Of a stretch of 64,000 nt of DNA, positions 35,739-43,622 are shown in pieces; position 1 is the first letter of the stretch; the number at the start of each line of letters is the position of its first letter. Both the position numbers and the translations under genes were made by a program. The DNA comes from Ignavibacteriota bacterium (GTDB lineage: Bacteria; Bacteroidota; Ignavibacteria; UBA10030; CAVZMI01), in contig CAWIHK010000001.1 of NCBI GenBank assembly GCA_963835935.1, positions 6,933 through 70,932 of the forward strand. The letters are read 5' to 3'. Under the pieces are notes generated by a model that ran no database searches, was not told the DNA's origin, and saw only the letters and a list, made by a program, of their open reading frames with translations.

Positions 35739-37001
35739 CTAATACTCTTCCCCACTTGCCCTGGAAATACGTGCGCCAAGACTTTGAAGTTTTGCTTCGA
35801 TCGATTCGTAACCGCGGTCGATATGGTACACGCGGAGTACTTCGGTTGTTCCCTCAGCCACTAATCCGGCGAGAATTAAAGAAGCCGATGCCCGCAAATC
35901 TGTCGACATGACTTTCGCTCCGACCAACCGTGCGACACCTTTTACGATGGCTGAGTTTTCTTTCACTTCAATATCAGCGCCGAGACGAACCAACTCCGGA
36001 ACATGTGCAAACCGATCGGAATAAATGGTGTCGGTAACAACACTCGAACGGTCAGCAATCGCCATTAATGCTATCCATTGCGCTTGCAGGTCGGTAGGGA
36101 ATCCGGGAAAAATTGCCGTCGTAACATCGACTGATTTTATTGTAGTCGGAGCTTCGAGTTCGATCCATGTGTCGCCGCATTGAATCGTCGCGCCTGCATC
36201 TTCGAGCCGCGCCAGCAACGCGGATAAATGCCGGGGATTGCATCGATCAATCCGGACTTTCCCTCCCGTGATCATTCCGGCAATTAAAAATGTTCCGGCT
36301 TCAATACGGTCGGGGATTGTTGTTTCGTCTGCCGGATGCAATTCGTCGACACCTTCTATTTCGAGTTTCGCAGTACCGATGCCATGAATTTTTGCTCCCA
36401 TCATATTTAAAAATTCCGCAAGCTCGGTTATTTCAGGTTCAATCGCTGCGTTCTCGATAACCGTCGTTCCCTTCGCGAGCACGGCCGCCATCATTACATT
36501 GCCGGTTGCGCCGACGCTCGAAACATCGAAAATTATTTTCGCTCCCTTCAACCGTTCCGCCTTCGCGATGATGTAGCCATGATCGAGTTCCACCTCGGCT
36601 CCGAGCCGGAGCATTCCTTCAATATGCAAATTCACCGGCCGCGGGCCCCAGGCACAACCACCGGGGAGAGAAACTTTCGCGTACCCATAACGCGAGACCA
36701 ACGGACCAAGAACATAAATTGAAGCGCGCATCTTTTTCATATATTCATAAGGAGCTTCAAACTTGCTTACGCGGAATGTATTTAAAGTGAGTGTTTCTCC
36801 CTGACGATCGGTTTCCACTCCCATCATTTCCAAAAGTTTTTGCATCGAAACAATATCCCGCAGATTCGGGGTATTATGCAATCGATATGTTCCGCTGGCA
36901 AGCAATGTTGCCGGCATCAACGCAAGCGATGCGTTTTTCGCACCGCTTATGGCAACACTGCCTTGAAGTTTTACTCCGCCGTTGATAACAAATTTATCCA
37001 C
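35739..37001 (-). CDS. murA: UDP-N-acetylglucosamine 1-carboxyvinyltransferase
   Basis: GAKNA, MRASIYVLGPL, LPGGCAWGPRP, PDRIEAGT, TDLRA; probable GTG start at 37001. Confidence 0.97.
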   Translation of the reverse strand: MDKFVINGGVKLQGSVAISGAKNASLALMPATLLASGTYRLHNTPNLRDIVSMQKLLEMMGVETDRQGETLTLNTFRVSKFEAPYEYMKKMRASIYVLGPLVSRYGYAKVSLPGGCAWGPRPVNLHIEGMLRLGAEVELDHGYIIAKAERLKGAKIIFDVSSVGATGNVMMAAVLAKGTTVIENAAIEPEITELAEFLNMMGAKIHGIGTAKLEIEGVDELHPADETTIPDRIEAGTFLIAGMITGGKVRIDRCNPRHLSALLARLEDAGATIQCGDTWIELEAPTTIKSVDVTTAIFPGFPTDLQAQWIALMAIADRSSVVTDTIYSDRFAHVPELVRLGADIEVKENSAIVKGVARLVGAKVMSTDLRASASLILAGLVAEGTTEVLRVYHIDRGYESIEAKLQSLGARISRASGEEY

Positions 37002-37069
37002 CTGATTTCTTCCCAAAATGTTTTAATGAAGTTACGAAGTTGTGTGCGGATTTGCAATTGAAAAGACTC

Positions 37070-37157
37070 ATTACTTCGGGAGTATAACTCCCTCAGAACA
37101 AGCCGATATAACAAAGACAAAGAACGTTTCGAGGGAGCTCCGCTCCCGAGGCAAATG
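37070..37157. repeat. Inverted pair of REP-like hairpins (REPIN-like)
   Basis: cttcgggagtataactccctc and gagggagctccgctcccgagg are each hairpins and are inverted relative to each other. Confidence 0.6.
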
Positions 37158-37180
37158 GAATCTCCTCATATCATTATTAA

Positions 37181-37314
37181 CGGGCTTTAGCCCTAATCAA
37201 ATTATTGAAAATGGGGTTGAAACCCCATAGTGCTTTTTATTCTCTGATCCACGAGCTAAAGCTCGTGGCAATAAAATTATTTCTACATAATTATTGCATT
37301 CTACGTAACATGAG
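37181..37314 (-). mobile_element. Partial, diverged second copy of the 6042-6244 MITE (inverted)
   Basis: Reverse complement aligns by eye with 6042-6176, including TIR (ctcatgttacgta), ccacgagctttagctcgtgg, ggggtttcaacccc, gggctaaagcccg. Confidence 0.8.
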
Positions 37315-37602
37315 TTATTAAATTGCTTGCCCATAAATTCACAGCTAAAGAATATACTTGCAGACTTGATTTCTTAAAGTCTAATCCGAAATCCAAATTC
37401 TGCAATCCGCATTCACAATGCTTGCTTTTCCCAAAATATCCTCCTACATTTTCGCAGTAATTTGTTTCATATCTATAAAGCAAAAAATATTTTCGATAGA
37501 ATGATTGTGGTTGGAATATATCCGGATGCAAATTTAAATATCGATCTTAGACCGAAACCATATAAACAGTAGTTAGGTTGCCAACAAGAGAAGGGTAACT
37601 TC

Positions 37603-38130
37603 GTGGAATATGTTAAATCGATTTTAGATGTTCTCATCAAAAATATAGAATGGTTGTTTTCTGGAGTTGGAGTTGTTTTTTTAATCTGGGTAGTCAATAA
37701 ATTATCTCTGAGCAATAGAGCACGGCTTAAGGTTCGCGTCGCAGAAACAGTTTCATTTATACAAATTGTCAATAATGATTACATTGGTCCAAATATTCCA
37801 TTGCTTGGAATAACTATAACAAATTTAGGAAAAAATACAGTATTTGTGCGTCAACCTTTAGTTTGGCTATCAAAAAAAGTTGAAGATACACATACATTTC
37901 AGTTGTTACGAGTTAACGACCATTTAAATTATCCTGTAGAACTTTCACATGGGCAAGAATTTCGCATAGAAATTAAGACTGAAGCATTATACGATCAGTT
38001 GCTCAGCAATTTAAAAGATAAAGTTTTTATAAAAATTCAAGTTGAAGATACACTTGGGCGAAAATATTATTCAAGAAAACTCACCGTGAAAAGAATTCGG
38101 GAGTTTAATCAAATTAATAATACGCGATAA
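37603..38130 (+). CDS. Gene cassette 1: hypothetical protein with N-terminal TM
   Basis: AT-rich ORF preceded by core site GTTAGGT (37572-37578) and followed by an attC. Confidence 0.8.
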   Translation: MEYVKSILDVLIKNIEWLFSGVGVVFLIWVVNKLSLSNRARLKVRVAETVSFIQIVNNDYIGPNIPLLGITITNLGKNTVFVRQPLVWLSKKVEDTHTFQLLRVNDHLNYPVELSHGQEFRIEIKTEALYDQLLSNLKDKVFIKIQVEDTLGRKYYSRKLTVKRIREFNQINNTR

Positions 38131-38137
38131 TTGACGG

Positions 38138-38285
38138 CGCTAACCAAGCGCTGAAGCTGACGGAATATGCGCGGGTGCAAAAGTCCGCGCAAAATGGTAA
38201 GGATAAAATTTAAATATGAGTTCGGCGCTAGGAAGGAACAATTTGAAGGTTTACAGTACCGCAGCTTAGCCGCCAATCGTTAGGC
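38138..38285 (+). other. attC site (intact)
   Basis: R'' CGCTAAC (38138-38144); L'' gctGaagctgAcgg (38150-38163) pairs with L' ccgcagcttagc (38259-38270) leaving two extrahelical bases; R' GTTAGGC (38279-38285). Confidence 0.88.
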
Positions 38286-38307
38286 CGCTAATCTTTGGAA
38301 TAAAACA

Positions 38308-38868
38308 ATGGAAGAATGGATCAAGTTCTATACTCCTTATTTTGCAAACGAAGATGAAGCTCATGAATTCGTAGAATGTTGTGAAAATGGGTCAGGTGCA
38401 AGTTCTGCAAAATTAATTATGCATCAAACACAACGACTCATTTCTTTATCAAAAGATGTATCAGTTCTTCGTCAGGGGTATGATGGTCTTCAATTGTTAT
38501 TTCTCATTATTTGTGCTGAGAATGTGGCTAAACTTGCGTATAATTTTAACAAGGAAAGTAGCTCACGGAAGTACGTCAAAATATTCTTTACCGAATTTCT
38601 TAGCGAAGTTGATAAGAATTGTCTTATACAAGGCGTTGTTGGATTTAATAACGAACATCTATCCCTTGAAGCAATTGTTATGGCATTTTATAAAATTCGA
38701 TGTGAAGTTGTCCACGAAGGCAAAAGCTGGGGATTTTCTTTCAGTAAGAATGGATCGCAAATGTTTAGTTTGCCAAATTTTATAGTACGTATTCAATTAA
38801 AAGAGTTACGCGACATTATTGTTAGAGGCTCTATTTGTGCAGCCAATAAATCGTTAATCGCGGCCTAA
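38308..38868 (+). CDS. Gene cassette 2: putative HEPN-superfamily protein
   Basis: Cassette ends gttaggccgc/gcggcctaac are perfect complements; protein has E-containing helix (CAENVA) and R-X4-H motif (IRCEVVHEG). Confidence 0.7.
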   Translation: MEEWIKFYTPYFANEDEAHEFVECCENGSGASSAKLIMHQTQRLISLSKDVSVLRQGYDGLQLLFLIICAENVAKLAYNFNKESSSRKYVKIFFTEFLSEVDKNCLIQGVVGFNNEHLSLEAIVMAFYKIRCEVVHEGKSWGFSFSKNGSQMFSLPNFIVRIQLKELRDIIVRGSICAANKSLIAA

Positions 38869-38899
38869 CCACTTTAAAAAGGAAAAAGTCAAGAGAAAA

Positions 38900-39186
38900 T
38901 AGATCTCCCGAGACATCATAACATGAATGATGTCGAAAATGTTCATTGAATTAATAAAGACCGATGCGTGCTGGTGCCGCATACTCTATCGAGTGGACAA
39001 CCGCTCGAACGCAATGACGTCCAAACCACTTTACGGATTTACTTCCAATTCATTCATATATCAATGAAGGAAGTTCGTCTCGGCAAAGCGAGACACTCCA
39101 GATATTAAAACGGCACAACGCCTATCTTCCCAATCCAGGCGACGATGCTCAAGGCAATCAGTTAGGCATCCGGGCTTGATAGGCGC
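38900..39186 (-). ncRNA. Predicted bridge/seek RNA of the IS1111-type element
   Basis: Guides matching target (39161-39167, 39135-39141) and donor junction (39101-39107, 39026-39033), each pair flanking hairpins and closed by stems; transcript ends are approximate. Confidence 0.85.
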
Positions 39187-40163
39187 GGCCACTGCTGTGA
39201 TTTCTGTCGACTAATCGGTTGCCCCTTGAATCCTTTATATTGTGATTTATTTTTTAAAATATAATAGACAATCTTCGCAAGTTCTTTGGCAACACAAGCG
39301 CGAGCGATGGCTTGTCCGGAACGCCTGGCACGTTTCAGATAGAAGCGTTTGTATTCTGCATAATATTGAATGGCATGAACAGCAGCATCGGAGAAAGCGA
39401 TCTTAAGATATTTATTGCCGTCTTTACTTGAGCGATGATGCATAGAGCGATTGGAGTTATCGGCTGCGGGCACGAGACGGCAATAGGAGACAAAATGTTT
39501 ATCTGAATCGAAGCGTTCGATGCCGTCGATTTCGAGATAGATGGTAAATGCCGAGAGTTTGCCGATGCCGGGAATGTAGAGAAGTCGTTGGATATCGTCG
39601 TTGGGAATCAGGACCGGATGGAGAGATTTTTCGAGTGCAAGGATCTGCTCGGCGAGTGTATCGCGCGTATGTTCTAAGACAGCGAGTTGGAAACGATACG
39701 GATCAGGCACAGAGCCGTTAAACTTTGCATGAATGCTTTTGAGTCGTCGTAGTGTGTCGGAATGTTGCTGGACAAGGCGTAAACGAATGCGCATGGTATC
39801 GCGCAGACCTCGCAATTCACGGCTGATTTTGTGAGCGCGTGGAATAAGATTCTGTCGTAAAAGTATGGCGAGGGTTTGCGAATCAACTTTATCTGTTTTA
39901 ACTTTAGCATAACTGATGGCTTTGAGATATTTGGCATGAGCAAGAACGAGTTCGATACCGTGATCGCTGAGAAGATCGTTGAGCCAGTACCAACCTGTTG
40001 TAGATTCGACGACAGCTTGATGAGAGCCGGGCAAGGACTGGAAATAATCGAGCACACAATGATCGATATTTTCAATGCGTTGTTGTTTGACGACAGTACC
40101 GTTATCATCAACGGTTGTGATATACGAGTTATCAGAATGCAGATCGATACCTGAGTAATACAT
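39162..40163 (-). CDS. IS110-family DEDD transposase/recombinase (333 aa)
   Basis: GIDLH, VVEST, KTDKVD (D-E-D-D), IPGIGKLSA, YCRLVP...DNS, GNKYLK; ATG at 40163 with AAGGAG RBS. Confidence 0.95.
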   Translation of the reverse strand: MYYSGIDLHSDNSYITTVDDNGTVVKQQRIENIDHCVLDYFQSLPGSHQAVVESTTGWYWLNDLLSDHGIELVLAHAKYLKAISYAKVKTDKVDSQTLAILLRQNLIPRAHKISRELRGLRDTMRIRLRLVQQHSDTLRRLKSIHAKFNGSVPDPYRFQLAVLEHTRDTLAEQILALEKSLHPVLIPNDDIQRLLYIPGIGKLSAFTIYLEIDGIERFDSDKHFVSYCRLVPAADNSNRSMHHRSSKDGNKYLKIAFSDAAVHAIQYYAEYKRFYLKRARRSGQAIARACVAKELAKIVYYILKNKSQYKGFKGQPISRQKSQQWPRLSSPDA

Positions 40164-40284
40164 GGGAATCTCCTTTTGCGCCTGAGGCGCATCAGCCTTT
40201 GGCTGAGATCGTGAATGTTGTTTACTTCGACAATGAGCAATGTACATAATCGGGAGATTCCTTTTTGATAATATCCAGGCGCTC

Positions 40285-40358
40285 CCCGACAAAGAACGTC
40301 GGGATTCTCAATTCGACCACGACTTACCTAAAGAACGATAAGTCTGTCGAATTGGAAC
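40285..40358. repeat. 74-bp double-hairpin insert within attC
   Basis: cccgac-AAAGAAC-gtcggg followed by caattcgac...gactta-cctAAAGAACga-taagtc...gtcgaattg. Confidence 0.7.
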
Positions 40359-40503
40359 AAGCTGACGGAAAAAGCGCGCGCGTTGAAAGTTTAAATTGTG
40401 AATTTAGGTAAGGTATCACGCGCGACGGCGGTAAAGTTGGAAGATTATCAGTGCCGCAGCTTAGCGCCGATCCTGCTTAGACAAATAAAGTAAAGAATTT
40501 CTT

Positions 40504-41000
40504 ATGGAAACCAATTATTATATGATCCAGGAAAGCGAAAGAATAATTATAATTTGTATAGTGATGATCAGTTTAGGAAAACTAATTGACTGGTTTCTTC
40601 GAAAGAGGTAAAAAGACCAAATTTTAGAATCTCTAAAGCGTTTCGAAAATTTGTTAGCAAAGACTTCTATAAAAGAATGGCAATGGCTTATCGCAAAATA
40701 CTTATTAGATTCATTTAATAAAATTAGAAATTTCTGGCATAAAATAATGTTTATTTTCGAACCAGATGATGATCTAACAAAAAATGAATTAAGAGCATAT
40801 TCTTTTCCGGAAGATTTTAGAAAATTTACAAAAGAAGGCTTTTATGGTCTTGCACTTGTGTTCCTTCTCATGATAATGCCATTAATTTTATATTCATGGG
40901 GTATTAAAAATAATATTTGGTTTCTTACTACTTTGCTTCTTCCAGGGATTTTTATATCGCTGTTTCCTATAATAGCGATAATTCTAGTAATAATCAGAAT
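40504..41000 (+). pseudogene. Gene cassette 3: membrane protein with in-frame TAA (40609-40611), interrupted by IS4
   Basis: ATG at 40504 is in frame with ORF 40651-41043; a single stop separates them; the IS4 left end starts at 41001. Confidence 0.7.
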
Positions 41001-42367
41001 CACACTTGTCCAAAATAAAATCTCCGGAAAGTGGTACCTTTAAGGTGGAAACCAAAAAAGAACAACCACAAACCGGAGCGACATATGTCACATAAGGGTA
41101 CGAACATTTTTTCACAAATAGTAGAATATATTGATAAAAAAGAATTCGCCCGAATAGTTCGTAAGAATAACGGGGAACGTCATACAAAAGGATTTTCGTG
41201 TTGGGAACAATTGGTGAGCATGCTATTCTGCCAACTTGGGAAAGCCCAGTCCTTGCGAGAAATTTGCGGTGGATTGGCGACATGCATGGGAAGACTGTCA
41301 CACCTTGGATTAAAAGAGAGTCCCAAGCGGTCAACATTATCCTATGCAAATGGGCACCGATCATATGAGATTTTTGAAGAAACATTTTATCAGGTTTTAC
41401 AACACGCTCAAACATGTATACAAGGGAAAAAGTCGTTCCGATTTAAAAATAAACTTTTTAGCATGGATGCGACAACCATAGACTTATGTTTGAATTTATT
41501 TGACTGGGCAAAATTCCGTCGGAAGAAGGGGGCAGTGAAACTCCACATGTTGCTTGATCACGATGGATATCTTCCTGTGTTTGCCCACATTACCGATGGA
41601 AAAACACATAAAGCAACAGTCACAAAGAACAAAATTGCCAATGATTTCAGCTTTCCCGCCGATAGCATCATCGTCTTTGACCGAGGATATAACGACTACG
41701 AACAATTCGCCCATTGGTGCGATCAGGACATTTACTTCGTAACCCGCATGAAAAGTAACGCAACGTATGATGTTGTTCAAAAGAACCCCCTACCTCAGAA
41801 CAGCAATATTCTGAAAGACGAGATTATTCAATTTAACGGCCCGGTCACTTCAGAAAAATGTGAGTATGACCTTCGCCGGATCGAAGTATGGGACGAGAAG
41901 AACCAGACGATCCTGGTCTTACTCACCAATCATTTACGATTTGGCAGTACAACGATTGCCCGGATTTACAAAGAACGATGGCAAATAGAGATCTTTTTCA
42001 AAACACTGAAGCAGAACTTGAAAATCAAAACTTTTGTCGGCACCAGCGCCAATGCTTTGAAAATTCAAATTTGGACAGCATTACTTGTCATGCTAATTCT
42101 TAAAATACTTAGAGCAAAGGCTATGTTTAAATGGTCACTCTCAAATCTTGTCGCAATGTTGAGATTCAATCTCTTTACGTACCGGGATCTCAATGAATGG
42201 CTCAATGATCCATTTCAGAGTCCACCATTTGTGCCAGATGTTCAGCTTTCTTTATTTGATCTTGGACAGCATTCAGGGGCTTACTCCAAGACTTTCCTAA
42301 AATATTGTCCAAATTGAGCCATGATCAATAGTTTTTTATCTATATCTATTTATTTTGGACAGTAGTG
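41001..42367 (+). mobile_element. IS4-family insertion sequence
   Basis: 19-bp imperfect TIRs cacacttgtccaaaataaa / tttattttggacagtagtg; no flanking direct repeat visible. Confidence 0.88.
41085..42317 (+). CDS. IS4-family DDE transposase (DUF4372-like N-terminus)
   Basis: MDATTI, VFDRGY, YKERWQIEIFFK (YREK signature); ATG at 41085 with GGAG RBS. Confidence 0.95.
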   Translation: MSHKGTNIFSQIVEYIDKKEFARIVRKNNGERHTKGFSCWEQLVSMLFCQLGKAQSLREICGGLATCMGRLSHLGLKESPKRSTLSYANGHRSYEIFEETFYQVLQHAQTCIQGKKSFRFKNKLFSMDATTIDLCLNLFDWAKFRRKKGAVKLHMLLDHDGYLPVFAHITDGKTHKATVTKNKIANDFSFPADSIIVFDRGYNDYEQFAHWCDQDIYFVTRMKSNATYDVVQKNPLPQNSNILKDEIIQFNGPVTSEKCEYDLRRIEVWDEKNQTILVLLTNHLRFGSTTIARIYKERWQIEIFFKTLKQNLKIKTFVGTSANALKIQIWTALLVMLILKILRAKAMFKWSLSNLVAMLRFNLFTYRDLNEWLNDPFQSPPFVPDVQLSLFDLGQHSGAYSKTFLKYCPN

Positions 42368-42725
42368 AAGCCAAGTATTAGTATGGTAATACAATATTAT
42401 ATTTAGCAGTACTATTTGATAATACAATCCTCTTTGTAATAATTACTCAGTGGTGTTACGCGCAAAAGATGAATTAGAAGCCGTGCCTTTGGCAGATTCC
42501 TTCGGAACGAAATATGAAATGGTTTCTGGAGCTTTTTTCTCAAACGGCGCTGCGTGAGGATTAATAACAGATTAATTCTTGTTTTCCGGTGTTCGCGTTC
42601 TTTCATCGTTTTTGAAAGAGAGTAGTATGTAGATTATCTCTCTTGCTCGAAAGGAACTATAAATTATTTTTCAATTATCTATTGACTTTTTACATAACAG
42701 CTTGGGGCGCTGGATTGCCATCAAG

Positions 42726-43622
42726 TTATTTCAAAAGAACAAGTCTAATTGATTTTGATTCATTATTTACACGTACAACACATAGATATACACCGCTAGA
42801 TTTATTTAACGCGTTCCAAATAATAGAATGATTCCCGCTTTCGAGTACACCATCAAATACAGTTTCAACTAACTTTCCCAAAATATCATAAATACATATT
42901 GTTGTTTCCGATCTGCTTGAAATATTAAAAGATATTACCGTAGCAGGATTAAATGGATTAGGATAATTTTGTTCAACAACAAAATTTTGCGGGCCCTCTT
43001 TTGATTTATTCGTTTCGACTGAAGTTACTACCTTATTTGTGAGCGTATCATATGCAATAGTTTCTATCCCTCCATAATCATGAAAAGCCGTTTGGATAAC
43101 ACCTGCTGACTTTACTACTGTAGTTGTATCCGTTTCTGTAAATCCATGTAAAAATGATGAGTATTCAGTAATAATTAATGTATCTTGTAATGCTGCTGGC
43201 GAGTAGCGCGAAAGCAGTGTTTCATTTGACGATAAAAAAAGATAGGGATAAATATTTTCTGACGCATATAAGGTCAATTTATGATTACCACTTAAATTTT
43301 CAACAATTGTAAACAAAGTAGAATCGATAATTGTATATGATGTATCAGACTCATGTCGAGGAATCTCATCAAAGCTATAAACGACATTCCGTTTTTCCTG
43401 AAAATTCCAAATAATCGAATCTGGAGTTACATTATTTGAAAGTACAGTATATTGTGCTTTGCCATCATACCATGAAAAAGTAGATATTATTGGATTTTCA
43501 ATCAGGCAATGATATGCGAACGTCCACCTATTGCCAACACTTAATGGAAAAAAATCATTAGAAGATGTTTGTGCAAGAACAACCGATGGAACAAATAAAA
43601 ACCAAAAATATTTATAATTCAT
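42726..43622 (-). CDS. Secreted protein with T9SS type A C-terminal sorting domain
   Basis: Signal peptide; EQNYPNPFNPAT...IYDILGKLV...SSGVYL...LVLLK. Confidence 0.88.
   Translation of the reverse strand: MNYKYFWFLFVPSVVLAQTSSNDFFPLSVGNRWTFAYHCLIENPIISTFSWYDGKAQYTVLSNNVTPDSIIWNFQEKRNVVYSFDEIPRHESDTSYTIIDSTLFTIVENLSGNHKLTLYASENIYPYLFLSSNETLLSRYSPAALQDTLIITEYSSFLHGFTETDTTTVVKSAGVIQTAFHDYGGIETIAYDTLTNKVVTSVETNKSKEGPQNFVVEQNYPNPFNPATVISFNISSRSETTICIYDILGKLVETVFDGVLESGNHSIIWNALNKSSGVYLCVVRVNNESKSIRLVLLK

Follow-up and report, generated by a model that had tools for sequence, protein, structure and literature searches.

A Predicted Guide RNA Whose Target-Binding Loop Overlaps the 3′ End and Stop Codon of an IS110-Family Transposase Gene in Ignavibacteriota

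Introduction

As described in the text of PMC11187229, the seekRNA-guided insertion sequences ISKpn4, ISPst6, and ISPa25 share with the element presented here a DEDD transposase, a guide RNA located 3′ of the transposase gene (tnp), and a target at the end of an attC site, and in these elements, as in ours, the top-strand match lies 5′ of the bottom-strand match. They are set apart from our element by that description, and the hosts here are Ignavibacteriota or Bacteroidota MAGs. The same text gives a longer non-coding stretch after tnp as the IS1111-type layout, with which the insertion sequence (IS) described here agrees, and presumes co-transcription of the seekRNA with tnp from a junction promoter, as we also presume for our element. 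The RNAs bound by the transposases of ISEc11, ISPa11, and ISKpn4 are placed there in the non-coding region downstream of tnp, whereas the loop reported here starts about 30 nt inside the ORF. Bridge RNAs of IS1111 elements are also located in the right non-coding end in the text of Durrant et al. (PMC11208160).

The bridge RNA of IS621 resembles the RNA predicted here in that it has two internal loops, each carrying a top-strand and a bottom-strand guide, around a core dinucleotide, according to the texts of PMC11208160 and PMC11208158. In both systems, extra bases beside a guide match the non-cognate partner (the handshake guides of PMC11208158, as its text describes them). The two differ in that the IS621 RNA lies upstream of the CDS with the guide order reversed (texts of PMC11208160 and PMC11208158), whereas ours lies downstream. 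IS5075 likewise has an IS110-family transposase and a long 3′ region with a stretch complementary to the right flank. IS5075 and IS4321 target the terminal repeats of Tn21-family transposons, whereas the target here is attC. In one IS5075 copy (L090, NZ_CP092513.1), the ORF stops at 1582–1584 and AAAACGGAA lies at about 1681–1689, roughly 97 nt downstream and without overlap; the assignment of this stretch as the guide is our own reading of that single copy.

A literature search confined to the text of the papers found no statement that a guide overlaps a transposase ORF or its stop. The term “stop codon” has 0 occurrences in the text of PMC11187229 and PMC11208160, and where tnp terminates relative to the RNAs is drawn in Figure 3 of PMC11187229; an overlap drawn only there would escape a search of the text. 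Here, we describe an IS in which the predicted target-binding loop and one of its guides extend across the end of the transposase ORF.

Results

The Insertion Sequence and Its attC Target

The window, by which we mean the whole 64,000-nt stretch of DNA analysed, contains two plus-strand ORFs (37603–38130 and 38308–38868), each followed by an imperfect palindrome of about 155 bp of the attC type. An IS interrupts the attC of the second of these cassettes directly after GCCTAAC (38863–38869), the box within which the ORF of cassette 2 (38308–38868, plus strand) terminates on TAA. Four copies of the IS, 88–100% identical, occur in the same genome, and their alignment fixed both ends of the element. 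The features of the IS and its target are as follows.

38872–40275, minus strand: insertion sequence, 1404 bp, ends set by aligning the own-genome copies
40278–40284, minus strand: left target half GAGCGCC, the rest of the interrupted attC, from the copy alignment and junction strings
38863–38869, minus strand: right target half GTTAGGC, which is the R″ box GCCTAAC (plus strand) in the attC of cassette 2, read from the sequence
38876–38884, no strand: subterminal inverted repeat, right arm AAAAAGGAA (plus strand), partner at 40258–40266, 9/9 matches
38887–38892, minus strand: TTGACT, putative −35, with TTGAC or TTGAT 23 nt before the flank in loci where the right junction was found

In the transposase sense, the left junction reads GAGCGCC-TG-GATATTATC and the right junction TTTTTAAAG-TG-GTTAGGC, a copy of the TG core abutting both sides of the IS (40277–40276 and 38871–38870, minus sense). 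TG stands at both junctions in the window copy and its close relatives, without a longer target duplication. In the subgroup of relatives with 53–57% identity (L035–L087), the junction base often departs from the guide on either side: on the left, T frequently takes the place of the guide's G ahead of GATAT, and on the right, GTTA is preceded by G or by T (AAAGAG or AAAGAT) within one type of IS. This looks like heterogeneity of the core, or a crossover one base off relative to the close group, and the crossover point is placed tentatively.

Outside the ORF, the element has 290 nt between the stop (39162) and the right end (38872) and 112 nt between the left end (40275) and the ATG (40163). 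The spacers from the subterminal repeat to the core are 4 nt on the right and 9 nt on the left, for which the text of PMC11187229 gives 3 and 7 bp. A second subterminal inverted repeat lies further in (38896–38911 and 40250–40265). From their sequence, TTGACT and the left end GATATT may together form a junction promoter once a circle forms. A sigma-70 scan of the minus strand within the IS, which covers sigma-70-type sites, found no promoter-like site. The preliminary description of this locus had proposed that the RNA must be processed from, or compete with translation of, the transposase mRNA, and this would fit both the result of the scan and the proposal of Siddiquee et al. in the text of PMC11187229.

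The insertion site and orientation are fixed. The right junction was located in 73 insertions, 69 of which abut GTTA, attC status having been read in the genome of the window copy only. This group of elements reportedly carries the name IS1111-attC, said to come from Tetu and Holmes in 2008. The only integron integrase above the curated cut-off in the genome of the window copy (TIGR02249, 484.5 bits against a cut-off of 265) is encoded on another contig (G000:C5:861452-862396); the attC cluster of the window and the three other IS sites, which are on contig 2, therefore lie away from the integrase, and the cassettes in the window are a small attC cluster distant from it. It had further been stated that cassette genes often end on the TAA of this box. 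Such an end was read in 12 of 68 flanks, compared with 3 and 1 of 68 in two control frames, an enrichment that bears out the tendency but not a rule.

Several other sequences were observed around the IS and its relatives. In the remainder of the interrupted attC (40285–40367), some 80 bp of additional sequence separate the left target half from the conserved CCGTCAGCTT and contain an inverted repeat of their own (GTTCCAATTCGAC ... GTCGAATTGAGAATC, minus sense). This additional sequence is also present at L004 and missing from L002 and L003, and pieces of it occur elsewhere in the genome without the IS (L006–L008); it may be a small MITE-like element that is likewise found in attC sites. At L005 (G000:C6:240989-241155), a solo 167-bp piece has 92% identity to the right end of the IS, with no adjoining transposase or target loop. 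At L084, about 300 nt past the loop, the right end does not meet a GTTA box but runs straight into another copy of that IS's internal donor-loop region, a partial duplication in tandem or nested form. A second, unrelated transposase gene (DUF4372 and DDE_Tnp_1, 428 aa) is located at 41031–42317 on the plus strand, about 750 bp beyond the IS.

The Transposase and Its Family

The IS carries a feature assigned by protein families, listed below, whose reading on the minus strand (40163 to 39165, with TAA at 39164–39162) agrees with the C-terminal sequence R-L-S-S-P-D-A-stop given earlier.

39162–40163, minus strand: transposase ORF, 333 aa plus the TAA stop (39164–39162), assigned by Pfam and NCBIfam

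The protein matched DEDD_Tnp_IS110 (PF01548, 57.9 bits) and Transposase_20 (PF02371, 62 bits) in Pfam, and NCBIfam NF033542, “IS110 family RNA-guided transposase”, over residues 4–307 with 162.5 bits against a cut-off of 140. A phmmer search matched it to the structures of IS621 (8wt6) and ISCro4 (9t56), with alignments ending at query residues 317–319; the IS621 protein itself ends near query residue 317. An AlphaFold2 model built from 44 sequences had a mean pLDDT of 84, with residues 321–333 below 50. Among the matches listed by a tblastn search of plasmids, identity to IS5075/IS4321 was about 23% over 92% of the query.

Structure and Covariation of the Target-Binding Loop

A scan of one genome per species yielded 79 homologous loci, nearly all in MAGs of Ignavibacteriota or Bacteroidota, with relatives at 53–88% amino acid identity. 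The loop was recovered in 74 instances (70 from these loci and the 4 own-genome copies), which amount to 49 distinct sequences. The RNAalifold consensus of these 49 RNAs consists of an outer 3-bp helix, a 9-bp closing stem, a CCC/GGG segment, and an apical hairpin.

39112–39191, minus strand: target-binding loop (outer helix, closing stem, CCC/GGG, internal loop with two guides, apical hairpin), from RNAalifold and pair counts in 49 RNAs
39178–39186, minus strand: 5′ strand of the closing stem, within the ORF (third base of Pro326 through Ser329), pairing with 39126–39118
39118–39126, minus strand: 3′ strand of the closing stem, past the stop, from covariation
39144–39159, minus strand: apical hairpin between the guides, 4/4 modelled pairs covarying

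In the window copy, CGCCUAUC (39185–39178) is perfectly complementary to GAUAGGCG (39126–39119) over 8 bp, and the other three copies in the genome have CGUGUGCA/UGCACACG in place of CGCCUAUC/GAUAGGCG. Across the 49 distinct RNAs, 97.2% of the paired cells could pair, compared with 81.2% after shuffling and 35–42% after sliding, and 174 cells were changed on both sides, compared with 49 in the shuffled set. The covariation score was 0.50 versus 0.17, and none of 500 shuffles (0/500) reached it. Compensatory changes were present in 7 of the 9 closing-stem pairs and in all 4 of the hairpin pairs, so that the closing stem proposed earlier is borne out both by its complementarity and by these changes. 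A further proposed pairing, CCCGGAU with AUUGGG, was retained in part: CCC/GGG is invariant (49/49), which leaves no room for a covariation signal, whereas the next two pairs could form in only 29 and 19 of the 49 and showed no covariation.

The covariance model (R1) matched the own genome at exactly four positions, one per IS copy, and matched 8 of 151 sampled genomes of the class, the own genome being counted. An E-value scan of 36000–43000 against Rfam returned one chance-level lncRNA match and nothing relevant. Within the transposase ORF, a 20-nt stretch (39907–39926) is 85% complementary to the guide and hairpin region (39148–39167), probably by chance.

Guides of the Two Loops and Their Matches

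The internal loop contains two segments that match the two target halves, and a second loop downstream contains two that match the ends of the IS.

39161–39167, minus strand: 5′ guide GCCUAAC, made of the last sense codon, UAA, and C, complementary to the flank GTTAGGC in own-genome copies
39133–39141, minus strand: 3′ guide CGCCUG (same sense; left target half plus TG core), then GAU, with which the IS begins at its left end; the nine bases repeat the left junction
39101–39107, minus strand: donor-loop 5′ guide UAAUAUC, antisense to the IS left end GATATTA, matching 7/7 here and 5–7 of 7 in homologues
39021–39034, minus strand: donor-loop 3′ guide GUAAAGUGGUUUGG, consisting of the right end AAAG, the TG core, and GUU, from covariation with the right end

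The complement of the 5′ guide, GTTAGGC, stands immediately outside the right end of the IS (38869–38863, minus sense). Among the 73 insertions with a located right junction, 69 flanks start with GTTA, consistent with the earlier statement that the UAA(C) of the guide pairs with the (G)TTA of the attC box. A perfect 7-mer match between guide and flank was observed in only 25 of the 73. At the three variable guide positions, 158 of 219 bases matched the flank, compared with 117 by permutation, and 0 of 20,000 permutations gave a value as high. Reducing the set to 35 distinct guide/flank pairs did not alter this outcome (68 matches versus 48); the 73 loci are related copies sharing genomes, and these counts are to be read as covariation of guide and site, not as 73 independent trials. 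Examples of such pairs are CCCUAAC with GTTAGGG, UUCUAAC with GTTAGAA, and ACAUAAC with GTTATGT.

The 3′ guide with its appended bases, CGCCUG-GAU, is identical to the left junction GCGCCTGGAT at 40281–40273 and varies with the left flank in relatives. In the second loop, GUAAAGUGGUU within 39034–39021 is the right end plus core plus GTT, the GUU of the RNA corresponding to the first 3 nt of the right target half. The variants of this donor guide (AAAGUG, AAAAUG, AAACUG, AAGAG, AAGCG, AAGAU, and AUGGU) occur together with the same variant of the right end. The second, or donor, loop appears to read the ends of the IS in the same way as the target loop reads its site. By analogy with IS621, the GAU and GUU bases would be handshake-like; the handshake guides of IS621 lie beside the top-strand RTG and RDG, as the text of PMC11208158 has them, whereas GAU and GUU here come after the same-sense guides and reproduce the integrated junctions. 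Taken together, the pairing pattern and the guide matches support the assignment of the structure as the target-binding loop of a bridge/seekRNA.

Overlap of the Loop with the ORF and the Stop Codon

The ORF ends in ...Q-W-P-R-L-S-S-P-D-A-stop, encoded toward the end by CGC CUA UCA AGC CCG GAU GCC UAA, and the last nine codons together with the stop form the 5′ half of the stem-loop at 39191–39112. Trp325 and Pro326 contribute to the outer helix, Ser330 and Pro331 to CCC, and Ala333 (GCC) plus UAA and the following C to the guide. The loop had been described as encoded inside the ORF. This holds only for about 30 nt, which make up its 5′ half and take in the outer helix, CCC, the 5′ guide, and one strand of the closing stem (the 5′ one); the 3′ strands come past the stop, together with the apical hairpin and the 3′ guide. 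That one guide contains the stop codon was confirmed, GCCUAAC occupying 39167–39161. Because the covarying 5′ strand of the stem and the flank-tracking guide lie upstream of and across the stop, the functional RNA must include coding sequence.

To survey the stop, the ORF of each relative was read from the start of the match to the first stop at the 79 loci. Among the 74 readable loci, 54 ended on the TAA of NNN-TAA-C at the same position in the loop, at 53–88% amino acid identity. The others of the 79 comprised 5 that run off the contig, 16 with a premature stop (34–321 aa; broken copies), and 4 that end nearby, two of which (L026 and L078) have UCAC for UAAC and run on for 4 and 71 codons, and two of which (L067 and L080) are frame-shifted. 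The UAAC of the guide is nearly invariant across homologues. Since UAA pairs with the near-invariant GTTA, base pairing with the target is enough to hold the stop in place, with no need for selection on it as a stop; from these alignments, selection on UAA as a stop would be inseparable from selection on UAAC as a guide.

In the 47 distinct intact ORFs, the third-position entropy of the last 11 codons was 0.78, compared with a mean of 1.28, and was the lowest of 331 windows, which is the synonymous-site constraint that the preliminary description had proposed to look for at this end. The stem pairs that fall on the third positions of the invariant Pro326 and Arg327 covary (G-C/A-U/G-U and C-G/U-A/A-U), and the next five stem pairs fall in codons 328–329, the residues of which are variable (entropy of 1.5 and 2.1 bits). 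The last two residues vary most in the tail, by about 1.56 and 2.74 bits in the same 47 ORFs; the three variable bases of the guide are exactly the last sense codon, and the last residue was found as A, P, S, I, V, or T. This wide variation of the last two residues implies that natural retargeting only swaps the C-terminal residue. The overlap amounts to genuine dual coding, with a retargeting cost that looks small. W325, P326, R327, S330, and P331 are invariant or nearly so, and K321, S322, and Q324 (K-S-x-Q), which directly precede the RNA, are kept as amino acids while their codons vary synonymously. The conservation of these two sets of residues means that the tail is more than neutral read-through and may serve a purpose that a picture in which the RNA alone prevails would miss.

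Discussion

On the evidence above, the element would be an IS1111-type member of the IS110 family, RNA-guided, with a two-loop bridge/seekRNA in its long 3′ region, and we consider this explanation as a whole highly probable: a standard RNA-guided transposon of the IS1111 type that is unusually compact and calls for no new mechanism. According to this explanation, the target loop would begin with the last 30 or so nt of the transposase ORF. As the target always begins with GTTA, the guide would always carry UAAC, and the ORF would run past the conserved protein core until it meets the UAA of the guide. Where the two codes collide, the RNA would mostly win, with stem changes placed on synonymous third positions of Pro and Arg or on free residues, and the C-terminal residue would just follow the guide. 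The RNA would be expressed, would arise by processing of the transposase transcript, most likely as a piece cut from it, and would be bound by the protein. What would be new is the overlap of a guide with the stop codon, the RNA-guided mechanism of IS1111-type elements being already known. Judged against the one IS5075 copy, the overlap appears to be specific to this lineage.

The alternative that survives best holds that the overlap is a functional coupling rather than compaction, a transcript being either translated or folded as the guide. To translate the last nine codons, a ribosome has to open the closing stem, and it terminates inside the guide; in variants of this idea, a transposase bound to the loop on its own mRNA prevents translation from finishing (autorepression), the new protein loads in cis on its release at the guide, or excision of the RNA leaves a message without a stop codon. 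In its favor, the position and frame of the stop are kept in those 54 of 74 readable loci across the whole identity range, the conserved peptide K-S-x-Q-W-P-R-(hydrophobic)-x-S-P suggests a selected tail atop its own RNA site, and Siddiquee et al., in the text of PMC11187229, propose co-transcription followed by processing, “likely by the transposase”. Against it, the last two residues vary freely, the tail has a pLDDT below 50 and no counterpart in IS621 or ISCro4, the guide of IS5075 lies about 97 nt past the stop (our reading of one copy), and the text of PMC11187229 places the seekRNAs of ISEc11, ISPa11, and ISKpn4 downstream of tnp. As guides lie downstream of tnp elsewhere, coupling is not needed for the mechanism in general, and we regard it as unlikely for this locus. 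The preliminary description had gone further in stating that dual coding ties target choice to translation termination. That the C-terminal residue changes with the target is borne out, but a costly coupling is not, the residue varying freely; the claim was overstated because the last residues are free, the stop is kept by pairing, and the tail is of low confidence and extends beyond the solved homologues.

The remaining alternative, that the stem-loop is merely a 3′ mRNA hairpin (a stabiliser or terminator), that GCCUAAC/GTTAGGC is a coincidence, and that the protein alone picks the target, agrees with the three exact occurrences of GTTAGGC in the window (the chance level for a 7-mer) and with the lack of an Rfam family match, but it is extremely improbable given that the variable bases of the guide follow the flank, each of the two junctions recurs over 9–10 nt in a 3′ guide, the second loop tracks the IS ends, the structure has an internal loop with no U-run after the stem-loop, and the family is annotated as RNA-guided.

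Returning to compaction of a standard element as the preferred explanation, a regulatory role of termination inside the guide could still be superimposed on it, although we hold this to be improbable. One form of such a role is a switch, in which a transcript serves as message or as guide and further translation is stopped by bound transposase or by maturation of the RNA, and in which the conserved floppy tail (K-S-x-Q-W-P-R...) would be translated from the stretch of RNA to which the protein binds later on; we rate the two parts of this proposal jointly as unlikely. If it were true, an RNA-guided transposon would have built-in copy-number control and cis-preference.

Bridge RNAs and seekRNAs are described as non-coding products, and the lineage described here would write part of its target loop and one guide in coding sequence. 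Annotation pipelines and covariance models confined to non-coding ends can clip such RNAs. The element would also add a further attC-targeting lineage outside the characterised ISKpn4, ISPst6, and ISPa25, with which it was compared by description in the text of PMC11187229. Reprogramming such an element changes the last residue of its transposase, and altering the UAAC part of the guide could remove the stop. The arrangement would thereby offer a clean system for the interference between translation and guide formation on one transcript.
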